Assembly (NCBI GenBank): GCA_964016885.1
Contig: OZ024758.1
Location: forward strand, 9,176,001-9,240,000
Reading direction: 5' to 3'
DNA length: 64,000 nucleotides
From: Eledone cirrhosa
Lineage: Eukaryota
Position numbers and translations under genes: made by a program. Shown here in pieces: positions 21,752 through 60,490 of the stretch (positions are counted from its first letter, which is position 1; every line of letters starts with the position of its first letter). The notes below the pieces were generated by a model. It saw nothing but the letters and a program-made list of their open reading frames with translations. It searched no databases and was not told the origin of the DNA.

Positions 21752-21793
<42 letters not shown>

Positions 21794-38942: not shown

Positions 38943-39012
38943 AATAGAGACGTGCGTTTCGTTATTGATCAGCTCAAGGTTCGATCTGTATCCATCTCGT
39001 CGGACTTCTGTT
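38943..39012 (-). ncRNA. degenerate hammerhead ribozyme-like motif
   Basis: Minus strand CCGACGA-G...C-GAAACGCACGUC followed by AAUAAA; core has U4>C and stem I is weak. Confidence 0.4.
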
Positions 39013-39371
39013 ATGGTAATGATAGAATGAATCCCTAACCCTAACGATGATGATGATAATGATGATGATGATATCTGTAGTTAAGTAGTATGTCTGTGCA
39101 GGTCAAAAGTTTGCTTTGTAACTATGTCGGTTTTTGATTTGATTCCAATGTGTAGCACCTCTAGCCTCAAGTTTACCAATGCCTTGTGATGAAATTTTGT
39201 GGATGAAAACTGCACAGAAACCCATTGTACACATCTCTCTCTCAATATAAATATATATATAGAGAGAGAGGCTTATATAGAAAGGGCTTCTACAGGACTC
39301 ACTCTACACATGTATTGAGTACCTTCTTTATTGCGGTTACCCCTGACTCAACTCGAGATCAACACACACAC

Positions 39372-39526
39372 ATATTCATGTTATTAAGGCGAAATAGTGA
39401 GTCTTGCTACTCTGGAGTTTCGTGTGTTTATCACAGCAAGAACTATTCTTATCTGATGACCCTGTGATAAACAGGCAAAACTCCAGAGTAGCAAGACTCA
39501 TTATTTAGCCTTAATAACATGAATAT
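39372..39526. mobile_element. palindromic mini-element with degenerate hammerhead
   Basis: About 63-bp inverted arms. Plus strand CUGAUGA(39453)-CCCUGU-GAUAA-ACAGGC-AAAA-CUCCAGAG-UA; the opposite arm retains CGAAACUCCAGAGUA. Confidence 0.7.
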
Positions 39527-40675
39527 TTAAACTCTACTTCGTCAACTACATACAGATATATATATATATATGAAGTATAAATCGAAGTTATAGCTGCAGT
39601 ATAAATAAATTGATATAGATATATATCAACAGCAGCACTAACATAGCGTGGTTCATAATAGAGGCATATATGAAACCATATACAATATGTTTATATATAA
39701 TATAACCCATGCAAGCGTGGAAGATGGACATTAAACGATGATGATGAATGATGATGATAATAAGCATACATGAATCTCGCTGTGGGTATTTTAAGTTGTA
39801 ATCATTTCACAGCTACCTCAGCATGTGTGTGTATATTTTAATGATGTATATCAGCAAATAATGTAAACATCAACGAGAGAACAGATTGTAGAAATTATAT
39901 GATCAGGTTTGCTATTGACTAAATCTGTTGTGAAAGCACGTGGCTTAGTGGTTATAGAATTGGATTCGCAATAGTGAGATTGCGATTTCAATTCCCAGAC
40001 GGAGCGATATATTATGTCCTTGAGTTGCGATCAGTAGATAGTATCAGCAATGGAAAGACCAATGGAAACATTGTTTATTTAGTCAGATTTGACAAGATTC
40101 ACTGCACGGAAACGAGGTTTGGTAAAATAAAAAAACATGTTTAGATCTTTAAGAAAGAATGTGATGTGTTGCACTATGCTGACGCTCTTAGGTTAAACCT
40201 GAGAAGTTGATTCAAGTAAATATATCTTTCCTTTACAAACATCATTCTTGTGTTTACTTGAAAGAAACCAGTGAAGTATAGTGTGCTGAAAGTGGTTGAG
40301 AGATAATATAATGTACTGAAAGGCTTTGAGCAATTCTGTGGATGGGGCAAGGCCTGAGTGGTTGATGTGGTAGTATAATGGACAGAGCTATATAAGCAGG
40401 TCTTGAAGTAAAGAAAGAAAAGTTAACATCAAAGTACAAAGTGCATGCATGTGTATGTGTATATGCATGTGTATGGTGTGTGTGTATGTGTGTGCACGTG
40501 TGTGTGTGTAAGTGTGTTCATATGTCTGTGTTCATGTGTGTGTATTTGTATATGCATGCATGTGTATATGTTTTATTTTTGTGAATGTTTATTTTATGCT
40601 GAAAAATGTTGATATATTCAATATACACTTAAGAAAACTTAGAAAATTAGAAGTTTCAGCTCTCTGAAGCATTTG

Positions 40676-40857
40676 ACCTAACCCTAACCCCTGACCCCTA
40701 ACCCTAATCCCTGACCCCTAACCCTGACCACTGACCACTAACCCTAACTCCTGACCCCGACCCCTGACCCCTGACCCCTAACCCCTGACCCTGACCCCTA
40801 GCCCTGACCCCTGACCCCTAACCCTGACCCCTGATTCCTAACCCTAACCCTAACTCT
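40676..40857. repeat. telomere-like (CCCTAA/CCCTGA)n array
   Basis: Mixed 6-7 bp units ACCCTA/ACCCCTG. Confidence 0.9.
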
Positions 40858-41443
40858 AGAGTAGAGATATTTACAGATTTCTTTGATGAGAGAAAATGAA
40901 GGCATAAAGCATTTTGAATTGTATGTTTGTGTATTGAACCAGGATGTCATTATAATACTAGTGTATGTATTGTCAGTGGTAGGAAGAAGAAAAATACATA
41001 AGTTGAATGAGAAACGAGAAGATTAGTAACAAAAAAACCCTCCCAAATACTGGACTCAAGTGGAAGAAATAGAGGATCCAGTTCAGTTTAAGCATAGTTA
41101 AGTTAAAAAGAAAATAAACAGCAGATCTATTAGAAATAGATGCTTATATACTAGACGTATTGAGCTATGTAGGTCATAACCTAGTATTTGTTCATTTGAT
41201 CAGGTTGTTATTGTTTTATCCACTATAGTATCTTATTGTTGCAATTGAGCTCCCAGCTATACCCACACAAAGCTGACATATCTATAATCAAAGGTATTCC
41301 TGCCTTGAGATTCCCATCTGTTTTATGAACATAGTATAACTAGGACTACGTTTTCCAATGTGTCCTGCTTTATTTAAGATGATAGGATGTGATATGAAGG
41401 AAATTTGGCTGCTATTTCTAGCAGGTCGAGCGACCACATAGAA

Positions 41444-41666
41444 CAGCAATTCCCAACCTAGTGATAGTATTAGTGGGAGTCTCGGTGAGCTAAGCCCACA
41501 ATTTTGTGTACTTTTATATAAACATAATATACTTACACTACTCTAAATATAACCGATTTCACTATTTTGATTGCTATTCTTATCTGGGAGGGGGAATAAG
41601 TGCAAGGTGAAGAGAATTCCCTTAAATAAAAGGGGTCCTTAGTAGTGAAAAGATTGGGCACCCTTG
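41444..41666. mobile_element. hAT-like MITE nested in another repeat
   Basis: Degenerate TIRs CAGCAATTCCCAACCT / AGATTGGGCACCCTTG. The host repeat (about 41190-41700) recurs inverted at about 54700-54900. Confidence 0.55.
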
Positions 41667-41724
41667 ATTTAGAGGCTTCCCGTTTTCACTGTTATTTAAC
41701 TAATGACTGTTATAGAGATATCAC

Positions 41725-41835
41725 ACACACCACCACCGCCGTCTCCGCCACCACCTCACCACCACCACCACTGCCGCCGCCGTCATTACCACCACCACCA
41801 CCACCACCACCATCACTACCGCCGCCACCACCACC
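41725..41835. repeat. (CCA/CCG)n microsatellite
   Basis: Direct reading. Confidence 0.9.
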
Positions 41836-41942
41836 TAAACAAAACAATAAGACCAGCTGGACTAAGGAGAGTATTTGGTATCTACTGTTGGTGAGCTTCA
41901 GCTTTCCTATCTCAAGTGTCAATAAAATATGGACTAGTATTT

Positions 41943-41965
41943 GTGGGTGTGGGTGTGGTGGGGGT

Positions 41966-42063
<98 letters not shown>
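41943..42063. repeat. (GT)n microsatellite
   Basis: Direct reading. Confidence 0.95.
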
Positions 42064-42064
<1 letters not shown>

Positions 42065-43107
42065 TCATCACCATTATCATACATCTAAAAACCTTTTTCC
42101 TCCATGCTTGCATAGGTTGGCTATTTGTACCATTCCTTCATCATTTCTAGGGTTCAGCATTTTGAGTGTGTTATCACATCAACACATCATCATCATCATC
42201 ATTTCATCATTTTATGTGCATTTTTCCTTGCTGTCATAACAATAAGTCAGCACTCAATTGGAGCTTTACAGGGTGTACTAGGTACATTTAATTGTGGTAC
42301 AAGCACAAGAGAGGTTGTTATGCCCTTGATGTGACTGACAAGTCCTCTCAACTCATTTTGGTATGCTTTCTATGTTTGGATGTTCTTCCTAAAACCAACC
42401 ACTTTACAGAGTGTACTGGGTGCATCTTATCATGGAACCAGCTCTAGAGAGATTGTTAGGTCATTGAAGAGCCTTTTCTACTCTATGCTGTTATTTGTTG
42501 GATGTCTTCACAGAGAGTACCATACAATTTTATAGTGGGACCAACGCAATTATAGTGGCATCAATACTGGAGAGGTCGGAGGTCACACTGTTTTAAGGGA
42601 AATGTATTTGAGAGTGAGAATAAAAGGGCTGGTGAAGATAGAACAGAGATGTATGATAAGTGTGGGGTTAAACAGAGTGTGAAGGAAAAGAAAGGAGTAA
42701 CATAGGAGAGAGTACAGTAATGATGGCAATAAAGAGGGGAGAGATCAAGTATACAGTTGTAATCTTTCATATACATCACATGTCGATATCAGCACAGTCT
42801 TCTCTCTTGGACACTACATCTGATTCTTCTTATACCTAGTTTTTCTTTCAGCTCATTAAAGTTACATCGTTCTTGCACACTAAGGTTACGCATCCACTAG
42901 TGTATACTTGCTCAATTTCTTTCTAGATTTTGCAGATCCTTTGAAATCAAGGCCATCATGGCTGAGGTCCAATGATTTATGAAATTTGAGGCCCTTCTCA
43001 AAAAAATTTGTGTAAAAAATGTTTTTAATAATTTAATAATTATACATGATTATTATTTTTTATATTAATTTTAATGATAAAGAATATAATATAATATATA
43101 TGTGTGT

Positions 43108-43400
43108 ATCATCATCATCATCATTTTATGTCCGCTTTTCCCTGCTTGGAAGAGTGGGACGGGTCCTATTCAGCACAGCATCTCTCCACTTGTCACGGTC
43201 CTTCGCCATCTCCTCCGTGAGCTTCAGTGATCTGAGGTCAGCTCTCACCTCCTCCGCCCATGTTTTTCGTGGTCTCCCTCTACAGTGTCTTCCTTCTATT
43301 GGGATTTCTTGGCATTTGTTTACCCAGTGGTCATCCTCCATGCGCATCACATGTCCATACCATCTCAGTCTTCTCTCTCGCACACCACAACTTATCCCTC
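43108..43400 (-). mobile_element. RTE LINE 3' end
   Basis: RERRLRWYGHVMRMEDDHWVNKC...RGRPRKTW...DRDKWR; (TGA)n tail. Confidence 0.9.
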
Positions 43401-43432
43401 TTATACACAGTATAAGATATATATATATGTGA

Positions 43433-43815
43433 AAATGAAAAGTGAAATGAAAGGCAGAGTGTATGATGCGTGTATACGAACAGCAATGTTACATGGTAGT
43501 GAGACCTGGGCGCTGTCTGTAGAAGACTTGCGCAGATTAGAAAGAAACGAAGCTTGCATGCTCTGATCGCCCTGCACTTTTTTATACAGCTGTCGTCTTT
43601 CATGCACATCACATGACCATACCAACGTAATCTCCTCTCAATTAAACAGCATCTGATCCCTTTTATTCCTAATTTCTAACTTAGTTTGTTTATGTTTTGA
43701 CGTTCGGGTATATTACTATTACACATCCAACAGAGCATGCTTCATTCCTTACCAATCTGCGCAGGTCCTCCGCACACAATGCCCATGTCTCACTGCCATG
43801 TAATATTGCTGTGTG
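43433..43815. mobile_element. two RTE fragments joined in inverted orientation
   Basis: 43433-43567 (+) KGRVYDACIRTAMLHGSETWALSVEDLRRLERNEACML; 43568-43815 (-) TAILHGSETWALCAEDLRRL...RLRWYGHVMCMKDDSCIKKCRA. Confidence 0.85.
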
Positions 43816-43967
43816 TATATATATATATATATATGTACACATTGTTATACTTTGGGAGGGTCATGTTGTCAATAAAAAATATACCCGCACCTGTTGGTTT
43901 TCACTTCAATTTATTATAAATTTCCGGTTGATTGGTTGGTTCGATAACCGGAAGGTTGTTTATATAT

Positions 43968-44013
43968 TGTCAAAGCTCTTTCATCACACATTCTGTGATC
44001 TCCTCAGTGACTA
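43968..44013 (-). ncRNA. minimal type I hammerhead ribozyme motif (near intact)
   Basis: GUCA-CUGAGGA-G-AUCACA-GAAUG-UGUGAU-GAAA-GAGC-UU-UGAC; stems I and II pair, and the C before GAAA is missing. Confidence 0.7.
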
Positions 44014-45734
44014 GGTTTTTATTTTGTGTGTCTCTCCTTTGTTCTGTCCTACAAGATGGTGTAGGACAGAACAAAGGAAGCCTCAGTGGGTGTGTGGCCT
44101 TAAGCTATAGCTTATTTACTTATAGGTAAGTTCAGCACTGAAAGACTTGCAGCATTGCAGTTTGCACACAAGCATTATACAATCTACATTTTACTCTGAG
44201 CGAAAAACCCCTACTTGTCAGTCGAGGTAATAGTTCCCTGAATTAGGCCAACTCATTCTTATTTTAAGTATGTTTCAGTACACCCACCTTTGCTGCAGAT
44301 TAGGTCACCTAGGTAACAAAAACTGTCAATAACCTGTAATAAACTGCAGATCAATTACACTTACATACACATGGACACGTTTGTATATAAGCTATTATGT
44401 ATGAAATCATTATCTATATACTGATTGTATATATTTATATCTGTTGCTTTGGTGATATAATACACCAGTCATTACATTGCTTATACTTTGGTTCTGGTAT
44501 TTGATATATTTTATAAAAGATAATAAGGATAATAATATTGAACATTATCAGTTGGTATTAGCAGCAGACACCAGATTTAATTTTATAGAAATGATTAAAT
44601 TATGGACTACAGTGATTCTTATCTAAGACCAACTTGATAATTATGAAGTATAGTTTTCAACAAGTTGCAGATGATAGAAAAAGTAAAGTCCTTTAGATAT
44701 GAATAAATACATCTTTATATATTTTGAGACAGAACCTAAAGCATAGAGCCAAACACTATTACATAAACAAAAGATGTCATATATATTATGACATTGTCTA
44801 TAACCTATGAAAACATATATTGATTGGGTATTAGTCAACCAGCTTAGATGTTAACAGTGTGATGCAGATCCTATTCTTTACCCTGTGTGTGTACTCATAC
44901 TGCATCCTGTCCTTGTGTTGTGTTCGTGACTAAAACGTTTAGCTTTAGACAGATGAGTCCATTAGCTCTAAGTACTGTAGATGGTATAACCCACCATTGT
45001 AAACTGTAACAGTATTGTAGAATTGATAAGGTTTTTGTTGTTGTTCTTGAATTACAATTCTGAGTTTAATTCCTTCCAAGTGGAAAACACTCTACTTGTG
45101 GTGATATCTGAGTGCAAGAGCTTTATCTGTTTACTTCAGTGATATAAACCCGAGATAAGCATTCGTCCCAAAGGAAGAGGAAAGGATATAACCTATAGAA
45201 AATATTAGTTTAGATATTTAGGTGTGGCTGCAACCAAAAAAAAACAACAACTATATCCTCATAAATATTAAAAAAACCAGCTGACAAAGCTGGTCATAAA
45301 TCATAAGTGATGAATTTTTTGTTGGTTTACAGTGATCTCTTCATCCATGAGAATTACCCATGATAAACTGGTTTCTTACACAGTTATTACAACCATAGAA
45401 ATAAAAATATCAAGTGTTAGCTTAATGGACATGGAAACTCTTGAAAGGATTACACATGGAGACTAACATGTACATAAATATATAACTATAGATTGACAAG
45501 CAGATAGAGGTAGGCAGATATTTATATATGTATAACAATAGCCTTAACAACTATTTACAAATAAGAGAAAATTAGCCTCTAACCCATGAGCTGCAACTGA
45601 AAAAATATTGATGAAGCCCAACATATTGATGAGACAAGAAGAAGTAAAGAGAATGTGGAAGAGAATATACAAACGTTAATAAAAGTATTTTTTGTTTACT
45701 TGGAAGTTAAATCCTAAAAGGACAAACACAACAG

Positions 45735-45845
45735 AGAGGAAGAGAGAGGGAGGGGGTGGGGGAAATAGAGAGGGACAGTGAGAGAGGGGGTAAGGGAAAG
45801 AGAGAGGGGAGAGAGAGAGGGAGAGAGAGAAGAAGAAAGACAGAA
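45735..45845. repeat. purine-rich (GA)n-like tract
   Basis: Direct reading. Confidence 0.8.
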
Positions 45846-45933
45846 AAATGTGGAGGTGTAAGATAAAACATCAATTTGAAAAGAATCACACAATCGTTAT
45901 ATATTATGTATCGATCTCTTGAGACACACACAC

Positions 45934-45934
<1 letters not shown>

Positions 45935-46017
<83 letters not shown>

Positions 46018-46282
46018 CAATATGACCCTCCCCAAATATAAAAATATATGTATATTTATATATATATATATATATATGTATATGTGTGTGTGTGTATATG
46101 TGTGTGTATATATGTGTGTGTGTATATATATGTGTGTGTATATATATATGTGTGTGTATATATATATGTATATGTGTATATATATATGTGTGTGTGTATA
46201 TATATATGTGTGTGTATATATATATATGTATATATATATGTGTGTGTGTGTATATATGTGTGTGTATATATATATGTATATA

Positions 46283-46342
<60 letters not shown>
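45935..46342. repeat. (TA)n/(TG)n microsatellite with a short unique insert
   Basis: Direct reading; insert at about 46016-46045. Confidence 0.9.
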
Positions 46343-46344
<2 letters not shown>

Positions 46345-46376
46345 TTATTCCGGGTTCAATCAGCAGAGTATAAATG

Positions 46377-46453
46377 TTTAATATAGAAAAGCTTCCTCAT
46401 GATTTCTCACGAATGAAACAGTTCTAGTCCTGTAGAAGCTTTTCTATATTAAA
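46377..46453 (+). ncRNA. type I hammerhead ribozyme motif with one core substitution
   Basis: Perfect 19-bp stem I (46377-46395 / 46435-46453) encloses CUCAUGA-UUUC-UCAC-GAAU-GAAA-CAG-UUCUAGUC-CUG-UA. Confidence 0.7.
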
Positions 46454-46489
46454 TATATATATATATATATATATATATTCCGTTTACCA

Positions 46490-46532
<43 letters not shown>

Positions 46533-46735: not shown

Positions 46736-47090
46736 TATAATAATAATAATAATGAAATTATTGTATACAGTGCTCAGGTGCACTACAACTCATCAAAGGT
46801 GCATGTATAGTACATAGAATAATGTACAAATGTCAGGAAAATGAACAGTGTATGAGTCATGATATAATAATAACAATAATGAAATATTGTGTACAGTGCC
46901 CAGGTGCACCACAGCTCATCAAAAAAGTGCATGTACAGTACATAGGGCAATGCACAAACATCAGTAAAATGAACAGTGCACGAGTCATGATACACACATG
47001 TGTGCATGTGTATGGAAGGGGTACATCAAGTGTAGTTTTGGCGTATTTCGGGAAGCATGAGTGTCTTAAAGGATGCAGTGTCTCGGCCTA
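46736..47090 (-). mobile_element. LINE (CR1/L2-like) 3' end with tandemly duplicated terminus
   Basis: Minus strand RDTASFKTLMLPEIRQNYT* followed by UTR; about 115-bp duplication (46750-46865 / 46878-46990), each ending in (ATT)n on the minus strand. Confidence 0.55.
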
Positions 47091-47220
47091 TATATGCAGA
47101 AGTTCTATTTAAATTGTTGGGATACAACAAGCAAATATTTTTATAGCTGATATAAAGCACTCAACAAATTATTGGAGTAAAAATACGATATATTAACAAA
47201 TGGAAACTATATTTATAAAA

Positions 47221-47300
47221 CCATATTCATTTCATTATACATATTTCAAGGACACCAAGTTAAATTATGGTGTGCTTTCATCAGATAAAATATAATATAG
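47221..47300 (-). ncRNA. minimal type I hammerhead ribozyme
   Basis: CUAUAUUAUAUUUUAU-CUGAUGA-AAGCACACCA-loop-UGGUGUCCUU-GAAA-UAUGUA-UA-AUGAAAUGAAUAUGG. Same family as 59708/59899; lies inside the inverted repeat 47185-47390. Confidence 0.8.
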
Positions 47301-47515
47301 AGCAGTTTTATAAATAAATATTGACATACCCTTAAAGAATGAAATAAATATGGTTTTATAAATATAGTTTCCATTTGTTAATATATCGTATATATATATA
47401 GTTTCAGAAGATCCTGTTTACAGTGAAAGCAGAAATTCTTTGCTAAAACTTAAATCTGTACTAATTATAAATAAATAATATATATATATATATATAATTT
47501 ATTTATTTATTTATA

Positions 47516-47945
47516 TATTAGTAGAGATTTATATATATATTAGTAGAGATTTATATATATATTAGTACAGATTTATATATATATTAGTACAAATTTATAT
47601 ATATATTAGTACAGATTTATATATATATATTAGTACAGATTTATATATATATATATTAGTACAGATTTATATATATATTAGTACAGATTTATATATATAT
47701 ATTAGTACAGATTTTTATATATATATTAGTACAAATTTATATATATATTAGTACAGATTTATATATATATATTAGTACAAATTTATATATATATTAGTAC
47801 AGATTTATATATATATATTAGTACAGATTTATATATATATATTAGTACAAATTTATATATATATTAGTACAGATTTATATATATATATTAGTACAGATTT
47901 ATATATATATATTAGTACAGATTTATATATATATATTAGTACAGA

Positions 47946-47950
<5 letters not shown>
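47516..47950. repeat. ATTAGTACAGATTT(AT)n minisatellite (about 22-28 bp)
   Basis: About 18 copies with a variable TA spacer; an inverted single copy lies at about 47452-47466. Confidence 0.93.
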
Positions 47951-47991
<41 letters not shown>

Positions 47992-48193
47992 GATTGGTGC
48001 TCTGAAATAGCGATGTATATACGAGTGTATGTATAGTATATTTGGCAATATACCGTATGTTTAATTAAAAACATTTTGAAGACTAAACGCTATCGGTTTT
48101 AAAGTAGTGACTATGTCACTTACTTCTTTTCGTCGAAAGAAGGGAGAGAAGCTGACAGTCTGTTTCACGCTGTTGGCGATCATCAGAGCCACG

Positions 48194-48237
<44 letters not shown>

Positions 48238-48260
48238 ATGTAATAAACAACATAAGGCAA

Positions 48261-48326
48261 TTATTCCATTTACCAGTGGTTTCTTAAAAGCAAAAGGTTT
48301 TGCTTTCAATCCTCAGAATGAAAAAA
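48261..48326 (-). ncRNA. minimal type I hammerhead ribozyme (intact core, GUA site)
   Basis: UUUCAUU-CUGAGGA-UUGAAAGCAAA-ACCU-UUUGCUUUUAA-GAAA-CCACUGG-UA-AAUGGAA; 11-bp stem II, stem III ACCA/UGGU. Confidence 0.85.
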
Positions 48327-48411
48327 TCCTGGTTTGTTTATTGAAGTTGGATCTTAAAAAACCTTTTTTAAAAACCTTTTTTAAGATCCAATTTCAATAA
48401 ACAAACCAGGA

Positions 48412-48477
48412 TTTTTTCATTCTGAGGATTGAAAGCAAAACCTTTTGCTTTTAAGAAACCACTGATAAATGGAATAA
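48412..48477 (+). ncRNA. minimal type I hammerhead ribozyme (mirror copy)
   Basis: CUGAGGA at 48422, GAAA at 48455; one G>A in stem III gives an AUA site. Right arm of the 48231-48507 palindrome. Confidence 0.8.
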
Positions 48478-48599
48478 TTGCCTTATGTTGTTTATTACAT
48501 AATAATAATTAAGCTCTGTTGCTTACATAGAGCACTCTTTTTTCCTGGACTTTTCCGACGGAATTACTTCATTCACACATATATATATATATATATATA

Positions 48600-48909
48600 T
48601 ATAACAAAGAAGGTGAGGTAAGATACCAGGTGGACCATAATGCACCAGAGTACTCAATACTTAGGGTAGTAGAGTGGGTAATGGGAAAAGAGTTAGGACC
48701 CCGACGGGTGAGCTCCGACTGTTTCGACAGCTAGATCTAAACTGTTCAGATCAAGCTGTCGAAATGGCCGAAGCTCAGCTGTCGGGGTCTTGACTCTTTT
48801 TCTATATATATATATATATATATATACACAGACACAAACACACATACGCATATACACATATACTTATACATGTATATAAATATGTGCATGTGTTTGAGAC
48901 TGTACGTAG

Positions 48910-48988
<79 letters not shown>

Positions 48989-49182
48989 AGAAAGTATGAC
49001 CCCGACGGCAGAGCTCAAGCCGTTTTGATGGCTATTTCTGGAATCCAGAAATAGCCGTCGAAACGGCTTGAGCTCTGCCGTCGGTGTTAAACATTTTCCT
49101 ATTACCCACTCTACTACCCTAAGTATTGAGTACTCTGGTGTGTTATGGTCCATCTGGTTCCTTACCGCAACTCCTTTGTTAT
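48600..49182. mobile_element. two inverted copies of a TA-embedded mini-element, each with a fold-back and half-hammerhead
   Basis: 48602-48797 and 48990-49182 are inverted homologues. Internal palindromes at about 48693-48793 and 49001-49084 carry CGAAACGGC-loop-GCCGUC. Confidence 0.7.
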
Positions 49183-49197
49183 ATATATATACTTGAC

Positions 49198-49234
<37 letters not shown>

Positions 49235-49759
49235 GTACAGTTTGTGACTGTACGTATATATGTGACTGTACGTATATATATATATATATATATATATACG
49301 TACAGTCACAAACAGAAGCACATGCATAGTAGACAGCATAAAGAGGATAGAGTGAATAAGTAAACCGATTTGAATAAAACCTGTTTTGTATGTCACATTG
49401 TATGCTGAGTGTTCTTGAAAGGTGTTCTAGTCATGAATATTTCATATTTATACATATCAACGACTACACTGAGGTGTGATTAGGCATTTATTAGTCATAT
49501 GACTTTCTACTTTAACTGGATTGTTACTTGGCGGGTAATTTTAACCCTTTAGTTACTGTTTTTAACCGGTAATGTTATATTTGTAGAACAATTATAATTT
49601 TAATTCTTTTCAAATCTTTGGTATTTCTACAAAATAATAAGATGAATGCTAATTTTGAAAATAGAAACAAAGTGTTACACTATTTTTTCTATTAATAACA
49701 TATATTTCTGGTAAATATATAATTGAGGAGGTTTATTTAATCTTATATTAAGTTTAATC

Positions 49760-50910
49760 TTATGGAGCAGTGGAAAACTGCCAGTGTCATTCCTCTGTTT
49801 AAAAAGGGTGACCGCACGTCGCCTGTCAACTATTGTCCAGTCAGACTTACTAGCTGCATTGCCAAACTGATGGAATCCTGTGTCAGAGAAACACTTTGGA
49901 ACTTCTGAAATTCTCACAGTCTTATCTGGCCCTCGCAATTTGGATTTTTCCTTGAAGACATCACCCGGATCACTGATGGCAGCTCATGGGTTGATGTTGT
50001 TTACTTTGCAAAAGCTTTCAATTCTGTGCCTCACAAAAGACTTATGGCAAAACTCTCTGCAATGGGTGTGAGAGATGATCTTTTTAACTGGTTGAAGTCT
50101 TTCATTCTCCGTCGAAGAGAGGTAGTCACGGTTCTAGGACAGCATTCCTTACCATATGAGATGTCATCTGGTGTACCACAGGGATCTGTTCTTGGTCCCC
50201 TTTTGTTTGTGGCATATATTAATGACATAGGTGCCAACTTAAAGAATGCCACAGTACTGAAATATGCAGAAGACATCAAGCTGTACCTTGAGATAAAAAG
50301 GACAGATCCTGAACACTATAGATCTTTCCTGCAATCAGACCTGGACACAATGCAGCAATGGATCACGGACTGGCAACTCAAGTTGGTTGTAGACAAGTGT
50401 ACCACCAATAATTTTTTTAGGAAAAACCCAGTGTCCATATACTCCCTCCCCAACACTAATATCAAGAAGTCTTCTTGTGAATGTGACCTGGGCATTACTG
50501 TCAGCAGCAATTTGCATTGGACGAAGCACATCTCTAAAATTGTCAAGAAGGCCGAAGGTGTCTTAGCATCACTCAGCAAGGCATTTGTCAGCCATTCTCC
50601 AGCTATCTATTTAAAGTAGTATATAGCTATGGTGCAACCACACTTAGAATTTGCATCACCAGCCTGGAACCCTTATCTTGCTCAGAACATTGATCTCCTG
50701 GAAACTGTTCAGAGACGTTCAGCCAAGCGAATACCCTCCATCAGGCATCTACCATACTCTGAACACCTTGCTTCCCTGGGCATGGATACACTGAAGCTCC
50801 AACGTCTAGGCAACTGCCTTGGTAAATACCCACAAAATTATTAACCATCTTGCTAACAACAACCCTGAGCAACTTTTTGATTTCCATGTGTCTAACACAC
50901 GTGGGCATGC
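49760..50910 (+). mobile_element. CR1/L2-like LINE RT fragment
   Basis: VPHKRLMAKL, SGVPQGSVLGPLLFVAYIND, YAEDIKL, DLGITVSSNLHWTKHI, VQPHLEFASPAWNPY, LETVQRR; stop at 50617. Confidence 0.92.
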
Positions 50911-52435: not shown

Positions 52436-54240
52436 CTGAAATTTTTGTTGTTGCAATAAAATTTACATTGTGATGCGATGCATATGTCAGGATTCTTCTT
52501 TCTTCTTTAGTTCCTTTTGCTTCCTATGGAGCATCGGGCAATGATAAGTCTCCATTGTGTATAGTTAAAAGGCCTGCTCCCAGGTCAGGCTCATATCTGC
52601 TAGAACTTCCTTCACAGATGTCAACCAAGTCATGATGAGTCTGCCTTCAGTCATGGGTATTAGGGTATGTAAAAGTTGTTGTACAGAAACTCTCAGGAGA
52701 GCTTGACAGCAGAAGGTCTTCAGAGTAGACCCCCCCCCCCCTCATCCTCAAGCAAATGTTTCAGGTTTTTAACTTCAGGAGGATGTAGATGTTTAAAAGA
52801 CATGCTGGGATGTTTGGCTTTCAATAAAAAAGAGAGGGTTATAAGTTAAAGATAGATCAATAAAATTTTTATCTAATATTATTTTACAACCATATTTAAC
52901 ACTTTTAGTGTTTTTATTAAGAAGTAAAAATAAAGATAAAGCCAAACAAATGATAAATTCTCTTACTGCTTGCCATAAGGAATCCAGTGGTTTTCATAGT
53001 CTTGTTGTTTACAATAGTTATAAATGTGTATGTTGTACATCTGTTGGTTCTGATGTCTACTGCTCCAGTTGTTTTGATCAACAGAACAGCCTGCTTGTGA
53101 AATTAATGTGCAAGTGATTGAACATTGCACAGATATGTGTACTCTTAACATAGTTCTCAAGGAGATTCAGTGTGAACATCATAACCATGTGTCTTCACAA
53201 TAGTTATAAATAAGGGAAAGAAAACACTATTAAACTATACAACAGTCCTTAGCAATATAAATTTTGGTCTCTGCTGTAAACCTTTGTTCCCTAGTATCTT
53301 CTTGTGATTAGAATGTCAGATGGAATGCTTTGTGGTATTCATTTGGGCTTTCAGTACATTGAGTTCAAAACTTGTTAAGATCAACTTTGCTTTTCATCCA
53401 TTCAAAGTTAATAAGAAACCATCAGTCCAGTATTGGGGTCAATTCTTCTTCTTTATCTGTTGCTTACTTTCCTTCTCTCTTCCCTGGAAGAAACCAGCTG
53501 TGATCAGACCTGGAGAGGAGATTGGTTCCCCCAGATTTAAAATCTCCAAAACACACTGTACATCACTACAAGACCCCTATGATTCCAACAGGAGTTATGA
53601 GTCCACATAGACATGTATCTTCTAGTGAGACATCAGTATTCTATGAAAAGTAGGAAGTATAGAGAGCATTTACTAAGTATTGTCAGGGTCATTTAGCTGA
53701 GTATACTCTATAAACTCTCTGAACTGATAGCGCATACTGTAGTAAAGATAACCAAAACTCTGTTGGTTTAATCACAATGGAAAAATTAGGCTTATAAGTT
53801 GTTTGACCAGATGGCTTCTTTTCACATAAGAGAAATATTCTCATGACATTCCTTAAGAAGCTAGATCTTTGTGAAAACATGATTTTATCAGCTTTTCATT
53901 AACTTTGAGAGGAGTGGCAATATTTTAGTAGATAAAGTGTTAGCTTTATACAGCTGAAACAGTATGAGTTCATATCCCATCATTGTCATAAATTTTCTTT
54001 GTATCGAGATAGCTAAGTGAATCAACTTTATCTACCTTTTATGGATTGGCAGTATCAGTAGAGCATGAGATTCGACTTTCCCCTCCATCAAAATTATTGC
54101 CTATATAAAGAAATATTATATTGTTCATCAAACTTTTCATTTAGTAGTGTTCATACAGTTTTTTTTTTTTCTGTGGGTGGGTATTGAGAATTAATATATC
54201 GACTGCTGAGTCAGAAATACATTGATTATATTGAAAAAAG

Positions 54241-54418
54241 AGCGTTGGATTGGCAGTACTGGTAGAGGGTTGAACGCCATGCTTTCCAGCATAGAGTTAC
54301 GGCCCTTTACGGTTTGAGTTCAAATCTCGCTGGGGTTAACTTTCATCCTTACGGGGTCGATAAAATAAAACACGAGTGTACTGGGATAATTGCTGGCCTT
54401 GTGCCAAAAGTAGAAACA
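54241..54418 (+). mobile_element. tRNA-derived SINE (family B) with TSD
   Basis: A/B boxes; ATTATATTGAAAAAA repeated on both sides. Confidence 0.9.
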
Positions 54419-55055
54419 ATTATATTGAAAAAACCCACAAAAAACAAAACATATTCGCTCATGTGTCGTATTCCTTAGTTATTTTAAAGATAAGTTGTTA
54501 CATAAAACAACGAGGCTTTTAAATGAAGTAAAATAGGTACAAATCCTACTTCAGTGTGAAGTAAATAACATCATGTTGGATAGTCAAATATCAGAATCTC
54601 CATAAATATGCAACCCATGCTATTATAGAGAAGTGGATTTAAAAAATATTAACTTAACCACCCTCCTTAGAAATATGTTGATATATTGACCTTACAATGA
54701 AACCACTACATGGACGCTTGACCGGCTAGAAATAACAGCCAAATTCCCTTCAACTCACACCTTAGCATTTTGAAAAAAAAAGGAATGACATACAGCAGAA
54801 GGTGTTCCCCAAAACATTGTCTGATAATAAAATAGGATAATCATGGTTGGAATGCTTTAACCATAAAATTGCTTCATTCTAGCTGATCTGAGACTAAAGC
54901 AATTATATACATAGGATTGTATGAAGCTGGTCTTATTTCAGATATGAACTACTTGAAACAATGCAATGTCTAAGTGTCAAATTCTGTTATGCTACATACA
55001 CAATAAACGAAACATCCTGTTAGAATAGTAAAACATATTAGCTTTTACTATCTTG

Positions 55056-55238
55056 TGGATTGGCAGTATCGGTAGAGGGTCGGACGCCATGCTTTCCAGC
55101 ATAGTTACGTCCCTTTACGGTCTGAGTTCAAATCCCGCCGAGGTTGACTTTGCCTTTCATCCTTACGGGGTCGATAAAATAAAGTACCAGTAATGCACTG
55201 GGTAATTGCTGGCCCTGTGCCTAAAGTAGAAACAATTA
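55056..55238 (+). mobile_element. tRNA-derived SINE (family B)
   Basis: Near-identical to 37621-37803. Confidence 0.92.
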
Positions 55239-55342
55239 TGTTATAGTGTAAGTGAGGGCAGTTGTAATCACGAAGTTGACTGTGCAGTCGAATTCCCTGC
55301 AAAACTACTGTCTAGGAAAAGGCTGTTTTTGTCTTGTCATAA

Positions 55343-55462
55343 CCTGGTAAGGATGAAAGGCAAAGTTAACATCGACGGGATTTGAACTCAGACCGTAAAG
55401 GGACGTAACTATGCTGGAAAGCAGGCGTCCGACCCTCTACCGATACTGCCAATTAACCGCCC
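55343..55462 (-). mobile_element. 3'-truncated SINE (family B) with TSD
   Basis: Head only; 14-bp TSD TTGTCTTGTCATAA at 55329-55342 and 55463-55476. Confidence 0.88.
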
Positions 55463-55966
55463 TTGTCTTGTCATAATGGTGAATATCTTTATCTCCCGAG
55501 AAAGCCCACGACAGAAAGGCACTACATCTTAAAAAGAAAGCAAAGGAGAACACTTCATCCATTCAAGGTCGATAAAAAAAGTACCAGTCAAGTAGTGGGT
55601 CGATTCTTCCTCTATAACTTCCCCTTTCTCACTTACATTCTCTGGAAAAAATCTGCTGTATTCAGACCTGGAGAAGATTGGGCTCTGCCAGGTTTTAAAA
55701 TGCCCGAGAAACTCTGTATGTCACTACGGTGTCCCTACGACACTATCGTGAGTTACTGGACCATACCATACATTTAATACTGTTTAAATTAACTCTGATT
55801 AAATAAGATTTTAGACGTGAAAGGCTGCTGTATCATTTTCAGTGCTTTGGTAAGTTAGCGGTGCTTTCTATAATTCCATTCTCATGACTATACATAAATT
55901 GGGTAAAATTATAGATGAACACCCCTCTCCAAGCCACAATACACCACACCACACCCCTCCAAGCCA

Positions 55967-56845
55967 CGGGTAAAATTATAGATGAACACCCCTCTCGATT
56001 TCAGTGGAAAATAAGTATTTTTTCTTGCTTTTTTTCGTTTCGTGTGCTATCTACTATCCGCAAAGGACCCCCCCCCCCCCCCGGAAAACGGGGCTGGGTG
56101 GGGTGGTGGTGAATGGAGGTAGGGACCCTCGGATTCCCCGTCCCTCCACTCATGTGTTATCAACGAATCTGACCGGAACGACTGGCTTTGAAGAAAAAGG
56201 AGGGAGAAAGAGGAAAAGAACCTCGGAGTTTCGAAGATCTACACCCTCTCGCGTTTGGTGGGAAATAGTTTTTTCATGTTTATTTTTCACGTGTTATCAA
56301 CGAATCTAACCTTAACCCCTAAGGGCCTTTTTTCAGCGGGGTACCAGGAGACATGCCCCCCCCCTTTTTTTTTCAAACTTTTATGTTTTATTTATTTGAT
56401 ATAATAAATTCTTTTTAAGCTTATTCTTTTATATCTGAACTTCATTTGAATTTATAAAATTTAATTAGCGTAAAATTTTACTTATGTGATAGGGTCCGGG
56501 AAACGCAACATAAGCAATACTAACATGCTCCTTTAAGAATCAACAAATCACATTTTTAGGGTAAACGAGGCCCCTTCTAACCCCTAAACTTAACCCTATA
56601 CCCAAATCTAATTGTAACTCTAACCGCTTCCAACATTTACCATGAGGTACGGTTAAATAAAAAACGAATAATATAATATACGAAAAGAAAAAAATGATAA
56701 AGAAAACTCCGTGAGGGAGGGGGGGGGGGTCCGTTTTCCGGTGGAAAAAGTCTTTTGTTCAGAGCTCAGATTAGTACATAAAAAAAAAAGAGAGAAAAAA
56801 AATGATGTCACCACTGAAATCGAGAAGGGATGTTCTATAATACCG
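55967..56845. mobile_element. non-autonomous TIR element with internal CCCTAA-like repeats
   Basis: Imperfect TIRs ATTATAGATGAACACCCCTCTCGATTTCAGTGG / CCACTGAAATCGAGAAGGGATGTTCTATAAT; the left end is tandemly duplicated at 55901-55929. Confidence 0.65.
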
Positions 56846-58699
56846 TAATTTGTAATTTTATTTTATTTTTACTAATTCGTCAGTTTTTATTTATTCCATT
56901 TTATACATATAAACCCAATTTATATATGTATAATAAATATGAAATATTGAAAAGAAACAAATCAATAGAAATCAATCAAAAAAAAAGAAAGTAGCATTGT
57001 AAAAGACTATAAATGGGGTAGGGGTGGGGGTAAGGGTTATTAAGCAACGGAAGAAAGGGGGAAGGGAATGAGATGACAGACGTTCCCGTTTCTTGAATGG
57101 TACTTCACTCTATCCAACTAGAAGAATAAAAGGGTAAAGTTAACTTTGGTAAGATTTGAACTCAGAACAAACAGTCATAACTAAATACCACAAGTCATTT
57201 TGTCCGACGTTCTCACGATTCTACCAATCCATGACCATGACTACTGCCGTAACACTACAATGACTTGACGTAATTTTTAAGGAGTGGAAATCATCAGATT
57301 AATTACCATCGTTTAGTTTGTTTGATAGGACTGTTCGTTCCTATTCAGTTTTCTCAAGCATTGCATTTATCTGATTCACTTAGTCGCTCGGTTGCTGAAA
57401 TAAGTGGAGAAGGGCGAGAGACTTGTCATGTTTGACGCCGACAGCTATCTAGCTTCATAAAATTTAAGTTGATTTCCAAAACGATTTATGCAGCAGTTTC
57501 TAGAGTTGAATTAGTAAAACAGTAAATATTTTGTTGTAATTTACACCTTATATACAGGCAGTGTGCATCGTTGAAAACACAAGGTACTTAAGAATAGATT
57601 TAAAGTAAAATATGTGGGTACATGCCTCACTGGATGTGTAAATGACAAAAGTGTACTGAGGGAAAAATTGAGTATAAAAGGAATTGATGAATATAGAAAT
57701 GTTTGAGTTTGTATGTGTGGAAATGTGATATGTAAGGAGTGTGAAAGTACCAAGCGCTTGAAGTGAATGAAATCTGTGTGAAAGGAAGACCGAAGAAGAC
57801 ACTGGGTGAAGTTGCGAAACAGAGGAATTATAGAATATTAATAAATGTCTGAGTAAAGTTTGTTTGTGTAGATAAGTGAACAAACAAAAATAAAACAGTT
57901 AAGATTGCTTACCAAAGTATTTTTCTCAACATGGTTCTTGTAGGTGTCAGTAATAATCCAACAAGAGGGATCAGATTATAGTCTCCAGGTGGAAGATATT
58001 GGAGTAATAATATTTTCAAAAGTAGAAGAAAAACAACCACTAGGCGTGAAGTATAGAAAAAAGTGAAGAATTTTATCAAAAGTTCATTCTCTAACATATG
58101 TTTCAATACAATATAAGTCTACATAGTGCTGGTTTTATATTGATATAATTATTATGCCCATTCACTAGCAATACATTAAGTATTGCATTTCTTCAGAAAG
58201 ATTTCAAAGTACGAAGTAAGTTTGTCACATCTTGCAGTAAAGATATTTCTACTGCTATCCACTCTGAATAAAAGGCAACTGGACTAAGAGGAGAGGTAGA
58301 AAAGATATATATAATTTTGTCAAATTGTTAAGTGTCACTCTTCGAGAACACCTGATGCGGTTTTTAAAATGACACTGGATTTTATTTAAATTTGAGGTGT
58401 TTGTGTCAAGTCAGTGTTTCTTATTTCTCCTTATTCATTGATAATCTCTGGACTAAATATAATAATAATACTTAAAATCATAACTGTATCATATATTTCC
58501 ACACAGGAGGCCACAAAATTAAGTTACATACCTTTTGTGGTAGACATGGGCACCATATGCTGCAAGTAAGGAAACCCGACTAGAAGAACATTCACTCCAA
58601 ATAAATAGGATTGCATGTGGAGTGGACAAGGACTCTGTGACCCATAGAGAAGGCAGCCCAGCTCGGAGAGCAGTCACACTGAATAAATAAGACTGCATG

Positions 58700-59100
58700 G
58701 GGTAGACATGAGCTCTATAAGCCATAGAGATGGCAGCATGATATTAAAGCTCTAGTGCTGGTGGCTTGATGAAATGCACATAGTTTATGTTGTAAACTGG
58801 TTGGTGATGGATAGACAAAATAATTGAGGTAGTTAGAATAAAAGATAGAATTATCAAGCTCAGAATAGCCATAGGTGATAGAATGACAGCAGTTATCTTT
58901 ACAAATGCACCACAATCAGGGCTAAATAAAGAACAAAAAACTGATTCTGAGGGCCTCTTAGAGACAAATTTAATAGATAGAGGGGCCTTATCATTCTGGT
59001 GGGTAACTTCAATGGGTACATTGGGCAGCACCAAGATGGCTATAGTGAGGTACATGGTGATTATGGATATAGTACAAGAAATGAAGAAGGATCAAGTCTC
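58700..59100 (+). mobile_element. degenerate RTE APE endonuclease fragment
   Basis: DRIIKLRIAIG...NAPQSGL...NFNGYIGQHQDGYSEVHGDYGYSTRNEEG. Confidence 0.75.
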
Positions 59101-59557
59101 CTAGAATATACATACATTATCATCATCATCATCATCACCATTTAACATCCATTTTTACATGCTAGCAAGATTTAGATAACTTGTCCCGTTGTGAGACAAT
59201 TCCAATCAGATAACTGTGTCTTGCTAATACAGAACGTTTCTAATGCCAATCACACATTGTAAACTGGGTGCTTTTTATCGTAGAAGCAAAATGACCACTT
59301 TACAGTGTGGACTGGGCGCTTTTTGTAGTGTCACCAAACAATCACTTTTCAATTTACCATCTAAATTAAGGAACTAAATCAAATAGCATTTACAAAGTGC
59401 TGAGGAAATAGATTTATAAAATGCAAGATGCTCAAGTGTCTCTAATAATGGTAATAATTGTTTCTACATTTAGCACAAGGCCAGCAATTTGAAGGAAAGG
59501 GAAAAGTTGATTAAATCGACCCCAGTGCATTACTGGTGCTTTATTTTATCAAGCCTC

Positions 59558-59592
<35 letters not shown>

Positions 59593-59707
59593 TTATATTT
59601 AATTTGTTGGGATACAAGCAAATATTTTTATAACTGATATAAAGCACTCAACACATTTTTGGAGTAAAAATACAATATATTAATAAATGGAAACTATATT
59701 TATAAAA

Positions 59708-59787
59708 CCATATTTATTTCATTATACATATTTCAAGGACACCAAAGCAAATTATGGTGCGCTTTCATCAGATAAAATATAATATAG
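59708..59787 (-). ncRNA. minimal type I hammerhead ribozyme
   Basis: Reverse complement of the 59899-59978 motif (TCATCAG at 59765-59771); left arm of the palindrome 59671-60015. Confidence 0.82.
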
Positions 59788-59898
59788 ATCAGTTTTATAA
59801 ACAAATATTGACATAATACCCTTAAAAGAATGCGACCATGTCTGTTGGAAGCTCCGGATTCTTTTAAGGGTATGTCAATATTTGTTTATAAAACTGAT

Positions 59899-59978
59899 CT
59901 ATATTATATTTTATCTGATGAAAGCGTACCATAATTTGCTTTGGTGTCCTTGAAATATGTATAATGAAATAAATATGG
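59899..59978 (+). ncRNA. minimal type I hammerhead ribozyme
   Basis: 15-bp stem I with one bulge, CUGAUGA at 59915, stem II AAG..UACCA/UGGUG..CUU, GAAA at 59952, self-complementary stem III AUAUGUAU; predicted cut after A59963. Confidence 0.82.
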
Positions 59979-60490
59979 TTTTATAAATATAGTTTCCATT
60001 TATTAATATATTGTATATATATATATATATATATATAAGAAAATAAGTTTTTTCTTATATCCTGCACAGGTAAAAATATAGGAAAAAGAAGTTGAAAATG
60101 CAATTGGAGTCTTTAAGAAGATTTATTTACAATAACTTTACTGGTTTCGTAGTTTTATGATTTTAAAAAGTCTGAGATGGAGAGATGTGTGACTATGGAA
60201 TGATGTGTCTTGCATTGGAGAGGTTGGGGAATTTCTTTCTGGTTTATACCAAAAACGTGATTCAGATTGCTATCTGTTTAAAGTACAATTTGGTTGGTTG
60301 TGGATGCTCCGTGATAAGGAATTAAATTTTGTTATAATTTTTACACCAAAAATTAGGAGTGCCATGGTTTAGTGACCATGGCTAGTAACAATCCCAACAT
60401 ATCAAATGTAGAGTAATTTTATTTGTGTGTGTGTGTAGAAATAGTTGTTTTTGTTTCCTCCTATGTTTGAATATGACGAGTAAAAATAAT

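Follow-up and report, generated by a model that had tools for sequence, protein, structure and literature searches.

The window, by which we mean the whole 64,000-nucleotide stretch of Eledone cirrhosa DNA analysed here, carries a decayed end of a Penelope-like element (PLE) and a series of short insertions with hammerhead ribozyme (HHR) motifs, which we assign to families A to H and J (Table 1). The initial annotation listed eight complete or near-complete type I motifs and three half or weak ones; all lie where they had been placed, and all belong to multi-copy families. The motifs at 47405(+) (family J) and 48186(-) (family F) had been overlooked. The motif at 39453(+) is present and degenerate, having lost G12. 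That at 46377(+) is also present, but its core is mutated (CTCATGA), and the 20-bp "stem I" seen there is mostly the inverted arm, the true family stem I being 6 bp. The motif at 48412(+), in the long-tail arm of family B, has a mismatch in stem III. The half or weak motif noted at 38943 is a copy, now decayed, of family H, which has a long stem II; other loci of this family include inverted pairs, and its core is fuller in L324, L160, and L028 (L numbers denote collected loci). The half motifs at 48700 and 49060 are each the 3' half of a full U3-A8 hammerhead. The family E stub has a short fold-back at its 5' junction. A further descriptor match at 58196(-) has no good second copy among the collected loci and no TA flank, and was set aside as a chance match.

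Table 1. Penelope-like and hammerhead-bearing features of the window
Positions	Strand	Feature	Details
31554..31712	-	Neptune-type PLE GIY-YIG end (by motifs), decayed	relative of family E parent; 74% DNA identity
38886..39035	-	Family H stub, long-stem-II hammerhead, decayed	internal deletion; (TA)n end; ~12 other matching loci
39270..39355	+	Family C fragment plus short inverted piece	core gone; 82% to family C reference
39372..39540	+	Family D palindrome	left arm (-) begins in stem II; right arm (+) C3 39453
43841..44077	-	Family E stub, end of Neptune-type PLE (by motifs)	C3 44007; predicted cleavage site 43973
46344..46453	+	Family C insertion	mutated core at 46396, in sense arm; other arm inverted, long-tail
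47090..47391	-	Family A insertion	C3 47284 in long-tail arm (-); short stub in sense orientation
47399..47473	+	Family J stub	hammerhead-like, A at core position 4; starts at family 5' boundary
47986..48194	-	Family F stub	intact hammerhead; C3 48186; GUC site 48154
48231..48579	.	Family B palindrome	short-end arm (-), intact HHR, C3 48316; long-tail arm (+), C3 48422
48604..48804	.	Family G subfamily 1 palindrome	two U3-A8 hammerhead 3' halves, joined in loop II
48987..49180	.	Family G subfamily 2 palindrome	pair of 3' halves meeting at initiator-like site, loop II
59591..60004	.	Family A palindrome, flanked by two (TA)n tracts	long-tail (-) C3 59771; short-end (+) C3 59915

The arms of the family A palindrome at 59591..60004 are 98% complementary. 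Contigs of two DNA runs covering 59200-60400 both contain family A, with loose ends running into TA near the short 3' end, and none represents an empty-site allele.

The motifs are far more frequent than chance predicts. With our own descriptor, six motifs in the window score at least 8, against a mean of 0.33 and a maximum of 2 in 40 local dinucleotide shuffles; with a wider descriptor six score at least 10, against 0.3 in 20 shuffles. Across 39 regions of the same genome (385,939 bases), chosen independently of content, 26 motifs score at least 12, against 0.1 after shuffling, so that the observed frequency lies more than 100-fold above the dinucleotide-shuffled control. A (TA)5 or longer tract lies within 250 nt downstream of 24 of these 26 motifs, compared with 15.6% of background positions, which bears out the proposed targeting of TA. 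The core CUGANGA (or its U3-A8 covariant), GAAA, and UH, together with three stems and an open stem I, was found, and stem III is self-complementary, as had been stated. In 15 variants of the A superfamily, collected by homology, 92.6% of cells are paired and both sides have changed in nine pairs; none of 500 shuffles reached this pairing level or covariation score, in a control that sequences can beat through relatedness. Taken singly, the motifs give weak folding z-scores, from +0.1 to -1.5. No match in the whole window reaches an Rfam gathering score, and two sub-regions contain no Rfam hammerhead at E<=10; among the 150 matches listed, of 747 in an E-value scan of the window, most fall in microsatellites. 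Another family in the same genome yields 18 Rfam Hammerhead_1 matches at gathering score among 74 scored candidates. The excess over shuffles and the covarying stems confirm the motifs as real type I hammerheads of many families, with self-cleavage predicted, and extrapolation from the 386-kb sample indicates that the genome likely holds ~2x10^5 intact motifs.

Copy numbers differ widely among families. Family G is the most abundant, with at least 35,821 exact 30-mer matches (control 0). The figures for other families are 5,595 exact 36-mers for A (control 0), 3,164 candidates for E, and 1,719 exact 32-mers by pattern search for B (control 0). Family D has 74 exact 36-mer copies of its intact form and 1,627 first-look candidates, and J has 57 BLAST matches among the collected loci.

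The insertions had been described as non-autonomous elements with a Penelope connection. The connection holds, but the non-autonomy fails for six families: in other copies A, B, C, E, G, and J continue upstream into ORFs with reverse transcriptase (RT) and GIY-YIG domains. In these parents one HHR shortly precedes the ORF and another closes the 3' UTR. Family C flanks ORFs of 735 or more aa, present in 14 of 20 extended loci, and the order HHR-ORF-HHR is seen in L072, L074, and L077. Among loci chosen as widely spaced pairs, family A lies downstream of ORFs in seven of nine (L273-L278 and L281 contain parents with Hydra-type ORFs, and L274 has direct repeats) and family B in five of eight (714-aa ORF in L271, direct repeats in L267). 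Parent ORFs of family G are found in L240, L248, L249, L260/L283, and L282, family J adjoins a Hydra-type ORF in four loci (L029, L073, L206, and L225), and in seven loci an ORF ends 190-270 nt upstream of the family E motif. None of 50 instances of family D has a parent ORF, and for family H we found no convincing one (one weak case in ten).

The parents of A, B, C, and G are Hydra-clade PLEs, as assigned by protein motifs rather than by a tree. Each has a single ORF with RT and C-terminal GIY-YIG domains (the N-terminus of the G parent was not recovered), a CxCx5C linker, and CxxC and CxH around conserved E and N, with CCHH absent. The A, B, and C parents carry DKT, together with RWK in B and RWR/MWR variants in C and A. 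All four have a canonical HHR in the pseudo-LTR and (TA)n insertion. The distance from HHR to HHR is 4.1-5.0 kb in L274, L267, L072, and L077, longer than the "generally short (<3 kb)" elements of Craig 2021, where size is a descriptive and not a diagnostic trait. A "Neptune" label for these four families was dropped against the published Hydra definition. By ORF similarity, the family J parent is assigned as a fifth Hydra-clade family. Pfam gave no RT or GIY-YIG match in the four Hydra-type ORFs scanned, and they are identified by motifs and by homologues with PF26215, a few of which also have PF01541 or PF00078. Family E is, by its motifs, the end of a Neptune-type PLE: the ORF of L280 has a CX2-5CxxC linker, CCHH, and GIY-YIG at its C-terminus, with Pfam RVT_1 and GIY-YIG matches that are weak and below cut-off. 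Its parent may alternatively be Nematis. The GIY-YIG relic that had been noted near 31420 is real (31566-31682; 59% aa identity, E 5e-9 by tblastn to the 834-aa ORF of L280), but it is Neptune-type, and most motifs come from parents of a different clade.

In each family the 3' end lies at one of two alternative places shortly past the cleavage site (+53 and +146 nt in A, +20 and +130 nt in G), and their pairing is not random. Of 112 inverted pairs, 95 join a short to a long end, 16 are short plus short, and one is long plus long, where independent choice of ends predicts ~21 long-plus-long pairs. The palindrome junctions vary copy by copy, so the palindromes were newly formed at each insertion. 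The short arms end at a family-specific initiator-like A, and only 17 of 255 short arms in five families extend more than 3 nt beyond this A(+1), a position picked after inspection of the junctions. An extra G precedes A(+1) in 28 of the 41 arms ending there, compared with 43 of 185 other ends (Fisher p 1e-7), and the effect holds with one arm per locus (worst p 6e-5) and with any single family dropped. Some of the extra Gs can also be read as microhomology with the partner arm, for example in L245, L367, and L118. In J, D, A, and G the 5' boundary is a sharp one, and the G excess falls at that single offset only; family B has no clean single 5' boundary. A fixed stop at A and an extra G together suggest run-off copies of a capped RNA. 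By eye, neither G nor D has a downstream promoter element at +28 to +32. A 3' splice site as the 5' boundary is not favoured, since arms often retain AG and share no common upstream exon. As a test for cleavage in vivo, the tail-bearing copies of A (20), B (17), and C (30) were examined for 5' ends accumulating at the cleavage site, and no such accumulation was found. Six C fragments that start at or within 3 nt of this site represent one capture event inside family B.

Family G has a full U3-A8 hammerhead whose MFE structure is a three-way junction, and its 5' boundary falls inside the ribozyme. The 5' half of the core is kept in 12 of 124 arms, and the ~90% that lack it could not self-cleave. 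Family F is the only proven ORF-less retrozyme, with a 314-nt unit (head-to-tail period 314-316 nt, within the 150-450 bp expected) and a type I HHR. Its 5' ends are dispersed (0 to -276). A PLE ORF end lies upstream in one of 65 instances and is not contiguous with the unit. Among 60 copies a single one, L351, is a dimer with two ribozymes, the others being partial tandems, and this dimer crosses the previous cleavage site, as none of 60 upstream-scored arms does. Family F shares the (TA)n target, the two 3' ends, and inverted arms (36 of 60), and it likely borrows the same PLE enzyme. Its sister family in L225 has a U3-A8 core, a C3-G8 to U3-A8 swap between sister families.

We consider it probable that the units are hammerhead-bearing PLE ends that arose by nicking of (TA)n tracts and reverse transcription of only the front of the element's own capped RNA. 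The transcription start, the cap, and ribozyme cleavage are what we infer from the genomic copies. The PLE protein would nick a (TA)n tract and, by analogy with an in vitro result from the anole, the two sides of the cut target would prime at separate internal start sites. Each cDNA would end by run-off where transcription begins, in many cases with an extra G copied from the cap, and the two cDNAs would then be joined head to head into a palindrome. Long copies with ORFs would require read-through RNA. The ribozyme would be a passenger, not required for stub formation, and would cut read-through or tandem RNA, as a dimer in most families.

The same PLE ends could instead have been shortened by random 5' truncation, or by hairpin self-priming and fold-back, possibly on an antisense template, rather than by run-off at a capped start. 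We regard this as unlikely, although the part of Arkhipova 2013 drawn on here attributes head-to-head palindromes to antisense-template self-priming, many junctions have microhomology or adjoin quasi-palindromes (such as stem I or the extended stem II hairpin of G), and the 5' ends of family F show that dispersed truncation does happen. The sharp boundaries in J, D, A, and G and a G excess confined to one offset argue against it, and the boundary in G lies beyond the 3' strand of stem II, not at the stem base. One arm is tailed and its partner is not, so the two are not simple fold-back copies of each other. We give still less weight to the idea that every family is a separate non-autonomous mini-retroelement (retrozyme), self-cleaving and spreading as a small unit of its own. 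This description holds for F, with its ORF-less head-to-tail unit, dimer, and sister family, the D parent is missing from all 50 instances, and short stubs far outnumber ORF-bearing copies, as the G arms illustrate. It is at odds with the straight continuation of six families into PLE ORFs, with junctions that change at each copy, and with the loss of the 5' core half from most G arms. That the palindromes are MITE-like DNA transposons inserting at TA, with an incidental hammerhead look, would fit the inverted arms, TA flanks, high copy number, and missing Rfam match, but this very improbable reading is refuted by ORF linkage and covariation, and it also conflicts with unequal 3' ends and variable junctions in place of fixed, equal terminal inverted repeats, with the C3-G8/U3-A8 swap, and with the excess over shuffles.

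Returning to run-off copying of capped RNA, the stubs may form a genomic record of a protein dimer priming the two ends of a cut (TA)n tract at two different internal sites, with cDNAs that reach the cap, and the G promoter may lie inside the ribozyme; this fuller version is tentative. A G promoter starting inside the ribozyme would give element mRNA with half a hammerhead, and only read-through RNA would self-cut.

The kind of element is already known, even from octopus. The initial annotation had known of no description of such elements from cephalopods, but Hydra-1_Obim of Octopus bimaculoides, with a canonical HHR and (TA)n preference, is in the supplement of Craig 2021 (PMC8557442), and 235 Rfam Hammerhead_1 matches have been reported from the giant squid. 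The parents described here share with published Hydra PLEs (PMC8557442) a C-terminal GIY-YIG, DKT, RWK-like, CxCx5C, and CxxC/CxH motifs, a canonical HHR near the 3' end, and (TA)n targets, and the ORF of family B looks, by eye, like the Hydra-1_Obim protein as printed. That paper also describes an inverted truncated copy plus tail at one element end, and Penelope-13_HM resembles our insertions in having a 5' copy in inverse orientation, with both strands carrying an HHR. The published elements are mostly <3 kb and few, whereas here there are several young families with 4-5 kb between ribozymes, 3' UTRs that are long and rich in repeats, and stub numbers per family in the thousands to tens of thousands, and the HHR sequences are unlike that listed for Hydra-1_Obim. 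In metazoan PLEs, minimal hammerheads (Cervera and de la Pena 2014, PMC4209133) likewise comprise many families per genome, with palindromic stem III, opposite-strand pairs 100-700 bp apart, a U3-A8 core variant, and attribution to truncated PLEs. The counts given there are ~2,000-9,000 per genome, far below our estimate, and family G differs in its long monomer-type stem III and 50-nt stem II region, as does J in its A4.

For Poseidon of Anolis carolinensis, the parts of Frangieh et al. 2024 (PMC11167929) drawn on here report two internal RT start sites, extension of both target strands, and an HHR that insertion in vitro does not require. AT-rich targets and an optional tail that ends a short way beyond the HHR recur here, in a different clade and with tails of ~20-125 nt, and nicking and extension of both target strands from such internal start sites are proposed here as well; those parts describe no rule of short-plus-long pairing and, among genomic copies, no fixed 5' boundary with a cap-like G. 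Family F resembles the non-LTR retrozymes of animals (Cervera and de la Pena 2020, PMC7229834; Li, Clavereau and Pollet 2026 preprint) in its ORF-less 314-nt unit, type I HHR, head-to-tail arrangement, and proposed PLE origin. It differs in forming dispersed insertions of one or two units, not long arrays, and in carrying the PLE insertion signature in the unit itself. In the literature searched we found no precedent for ~2x10^5 intact motifs in a genome, for the pairing of short and long inverted arms, for stubs that stop at a fixed initiator-like A, often with an extra G, or for a boundary inside a U3-A8 ribozyme as in family G.

The pairing rule and the fixed, cap-like 5' boundary bear on how PLEs produce inverted tailed insertions and on the role of their hammerheads, and they directly predict outcomes of CAGE and of the in vitro assay already in use. 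The insertion scars of family F tie an ORF-less retrozyme to PLE machinery beyond sequence similarity, and support the hypothesis of the Li, Clavereau and Pollet 2026 preprint in an invertebrate. If the proposed mechanism is right, PLE hammerheads would gain a defined job, the clipping of read-through and tandem transcripts, and this would be the richest hammerhead genome in the literature found. The motifs missed by Rfam, many of them in near-perfect palindromes, are unannotated ribozyme variants (U3-A8, A4, and long stem II). The lineage is noted for heavy A-to-I editing, and the motif palindromes would, if transcribed, be a large source of double-stranded RNA.

The hammerhead ribozyme (HHR) motifs of the window are real and abundant, and they are the hammerhead-bearing ends of Hydra-clade and Neptune-type Penelope-like retrotransposons (PLEs), plus one retrozyme. 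Screening with a type I hammerhead descriptor found six motifs at a score of at least 8 versus 0.33 on average across 40 local dinucleotide shuffles, an excess that also stands with a wider descriptor (6 versus 0.3). Every site named in the initial annotation belongs to a multi-copy family, several window copies are damaged, and two families had been overlooked (see table). Rfam scans of the window recognised none of the hammerhead motifs, and the folds of single motifs showed no advantage over those of shuffles (z +0.1 to -1.5). The Hammerhead_1 cut-off was passed by another family of the same genome (18 matches among 74 scored). Family H1 (L001-L010), which passes this cut-off, shares the palindrome-plus-TA pattern, and its 3-kb loci contained no parent ORF. 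Within 2.2 kb (window 47090-49300), six insertions of hammerhead families (A, J, F, B, G, and G) follow one another with TA between each, a layout that fits recurrent insertion into TA tracts. The LINE-type fragments and the SINE-like repeat are ordinary repeat content.

Hammerhead families and other features of the window
Feature	Position	Strand	Remark
Family H	38943		initial annotation
Family D	39453		initial annotation; G12 lost
Family E	43968		initial annotation
Family C	46377		initial annotation; core mutated at 46396
Family A	47221, 59708, 59899		initial annotation
Family B	48261, 48412		initial annotation; stem III mismatch at 48422
Family G	48700, 49060		initial annotation
Family F	48186	-	overlooked initially
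Family J	47405	+	overlooked initially
Cofilin/ADF gene exon	63370-63729	+	Pfam PF00241, E 6e-9
Degenerate telomere-like CCCTAA/CCCTGA repeats	40677-40850; 39033-39045		inside contig
Other LINE-type RT element fragments	49909-50616, 35776-37113, 29014-29367		RVT_1 E 2e-20 at 49909
Frequent ~190-bp SINE-like repeat	38442-38632, 60485-60675		

Starting from a protein fragment next to a copy of family A, the search reached a young family of RT and GIY-YIG ORFs (150 scored matches, 91-100% identity). One element ORF has an Octopus vulgaris protein as its best named match (64% identity), which makes an octopod host likely. The family C ribozyme flanks the young-family ORFs in 14 of 20 extended loci, and L072, L074, and L077 share the order inverted HHR, sense HHR, ORF, long 3' UTR, sense HHR. 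ORFs also lie upstream of A in 7/9 and of B in 5/8 loci, all selected as widely spaced pairs, upstream of G in L240, L248, L249, L260/L283, and L282, upstream of E in seven loci, and alongside J in four. Penelope ORFs sharing the same ends were thus found for A, B, C, E, G, and J, and the earlier label of non-autonomous mini-elements is wrong for these families and right for the ORF-less family F. Family D had no parent (ORF-bearing copy) in 50 instances, and family H no convincing one, with one weak candidate among 10 instances.

Between them, the A, B, C, and G parents share 36-54% identity, and they bear DKT, RWK (or a variant of it), CxCx5C, CxxC, and CxH; by the motif definition of Craig et al. 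2021 (PMC8557442), they class as Hydra-clade PLEs. The E parent, with a Neptune-type linker, a CCHH motif, and weak RVT_1 and GIY-YIG matches, classes by motifs as a Neptune-type PLE. The Penelope GIY-YIG relic reported near 31420 is present (31566-31682) and groups with this E parent. The family B 3' UTR (L177, L187, L188, L192, and L272) holds a captured family C piece starting at about the C cleavage site; the capture happened once, in an ancestor, and cleaved RNA may have been its template. In two arrays, at a family J end with TA (window 47466-47988) and at a family E end without TA (L156:1711-2314), the final ~24 nt of a PLE end are repeated 20-25 times. These arrays likely arose by slippage, although telomerase-like repeated re-priming at the RT start site may also account for them.

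Covariation is clear in the A superfamily, where 92.6% of cells are paired among 15 homology-collected variants and nine pairs are altered on both sides; 0/500 shuffles, a control that related sequences can beat, matched the pairing level or covariation score. Stem III is self-complementary in 7/7 families checked, as initially described, and forms a strong monomer hairpin only in family G. In family J (window 47399-47473; L049, L029, L206, and L221), core position 4 is A, not U, in essentially all copies seen, and the cleavage position is U. J may represent a naturally occurring variant of the core, or else a dead ribozyme that continues to be amplified. Family B parents (L267, L268, L269, L270, and L271) carry a second, diverged hammerhead ~0.4 kb past the stop codon and 1.0-1.8 kb ahead of the terminal one, with G at the cleavage position in L267 and L271.

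Exact pattern counts across the 3.0-Gb genome were 5,595 for A, 1,719 for B, 35,821 for G, and 74 for D, and family F gave 74 matches with one mismatch allowed; every reversed-pattern control returned 0. A sample of 39 regions, placed at round coordinates along large contigs and totalling 385,939 bases, held 26 motifs at a score of at least 12 versus 0.1 in 20 shuffles, which extrapolates to ~2.0x10^5 motifs genome-wide (bootstrap 1.0-3.2x10^5), half motifs left out. As the initial annotation had proposed, TA flanks are enriched: a (TA)5+ tract lies within 250 nt downstream of 24/26 sample motifs versus 15.6% of background positions. Motifs of the collected loci formed 29 clusters at 85% identity, 14 of them with at least two members. 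With other descriptors, published counts are 126,247 for axolotl, >6,000 for coral and ~5,000 for mussel (PMC7229834), ~9,000 for Xenopus (PMC4209133), and 235 for giant squid (PMC6962438). The family C parent 3' UTR is a 1-3 kb mixed TA/TG repeat (L053-L070; window 46026-46343), and this element may carry some of the long TA/TG arrays of this genome. The window also contains a 13.7-kb TA-rich array (8212-21904).

Family F is a head-to-tail 314-nt unit without an ORF. Among 60 copies, inverted arms occur in 36; the majority of copies terminate in TA, in either of two end zones, and the L351 copy is a dimer with two ribozymes. Its sister family in L225 has a U3-A8 core in place of C3-G8. Three head-to-tail family D units (L130-L132, G000:C2:310208868-310209291), spaced at 173 bp with flanking DNA included, likely reflect local duplication and not a retrozyme array.

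Past the cleavage site, where the sequence is the 5' leader of the ORF, every family has two alternative 3' ends. Among 112 inverted pairs of short arms (nearer 3' end) and long arms (farther 3' end), 95 are short+long, 16 short+short, and one long+long, versus ~21 long+long expected under independent choice. Palindrome junctions differ copy by copy, and the palindromes were therefore not copied as units. An 11-nt motif common to the otherwise unrelated C, D, and G tails lies between the short and long 3' ends (window 39313-39323 and 49124-49134) and is a candidate signal for protein binding or for the start of RT.

In families J, D, C, A, and G (354 arms, 99 long and 255 short), a family-specific boundary A is overrun by more than 3 nt in only 17/255 short arms; family B has no single 5' boundary. 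The context of this A in G, D, and J, T-T/C-A-G-T, resembles an initiator. An internal promoter with an initiator is described for D. virilis Penelope (PMC2377424). A G precedes the boundary A in 28/41 arms ending there versus 43/185 at other ends (p 1e-7), with +1 sites picked after inspection of junctions, some extra Gs explicable as microhomology with the partner arm, and part of the A and D loci drawn from queries favouring particular junctions. The template base at this position is T or C, and the excess is confined to that single offset and holds with one arm per locus and with any family dropped. The family G boundary falls in loop II; the ends of 99/112 short arms lie no more than 7 nt from it, and the 5' core is kept in only 12/124 arms.

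These stubs, short HHR-bearing PLE ends in (TA)n, likely form by two-site priming, cap run-off, and head-to-head joining. The PLE protein would nick and then extend both target strands, as the anole element does in vitro, where RT also starts inside the RNA at two sites (PMC11167929). One internal start site would serve each target end; both cDNAs would extend to the RNA cap, run off there, and be joined head to head. Promoter-driven family G mRNA would lack half of the ribozyme, and cutting would be possible only in read-through RNA. The cleavage sites of A, B, and C showed no accumulation of 5' ends, in line with the in vitro result that mainly uncut RNA serves as template (PMC11167929). The main rival, drawn from PMC3846280, is truncation and self-priming at hairpins.

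Cervera and de la Pena 2014 (PMC4209133) had already described many HHR families per genome, the U3-A8 variant, and pairs on opposite strands 100-700 bp apart, which they attributed to truncated PLEs. Inverted copies, a one-ended tail, and HHR-carrying Hydra elements in (TA)n were described by Craig 2021 (PMC8557442). The supplement of the latter lists Hydra-1_Obim of Octopus bimaculoides, an element that prefers (TA)n and has a canonical HHR, and the claim of novelty for cephalopods therefore falls. Two cephalopod repeat papers name Penelope elements and, in their available portions, never ribozymes, and the preprint of Li, Clavereau and Pollet 2026 proposes, mainly from vertebrate data, that retrozymes derive from PLEs. 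In a literature with thin coverage of subscription journals, we found no reports of this copy number or the short+long rule, of a cap-like G at PLE stub ends, or of a promoter inside a PLE hammerhead. What these families add to the known PLE hammerheads is mechanistic and testable.
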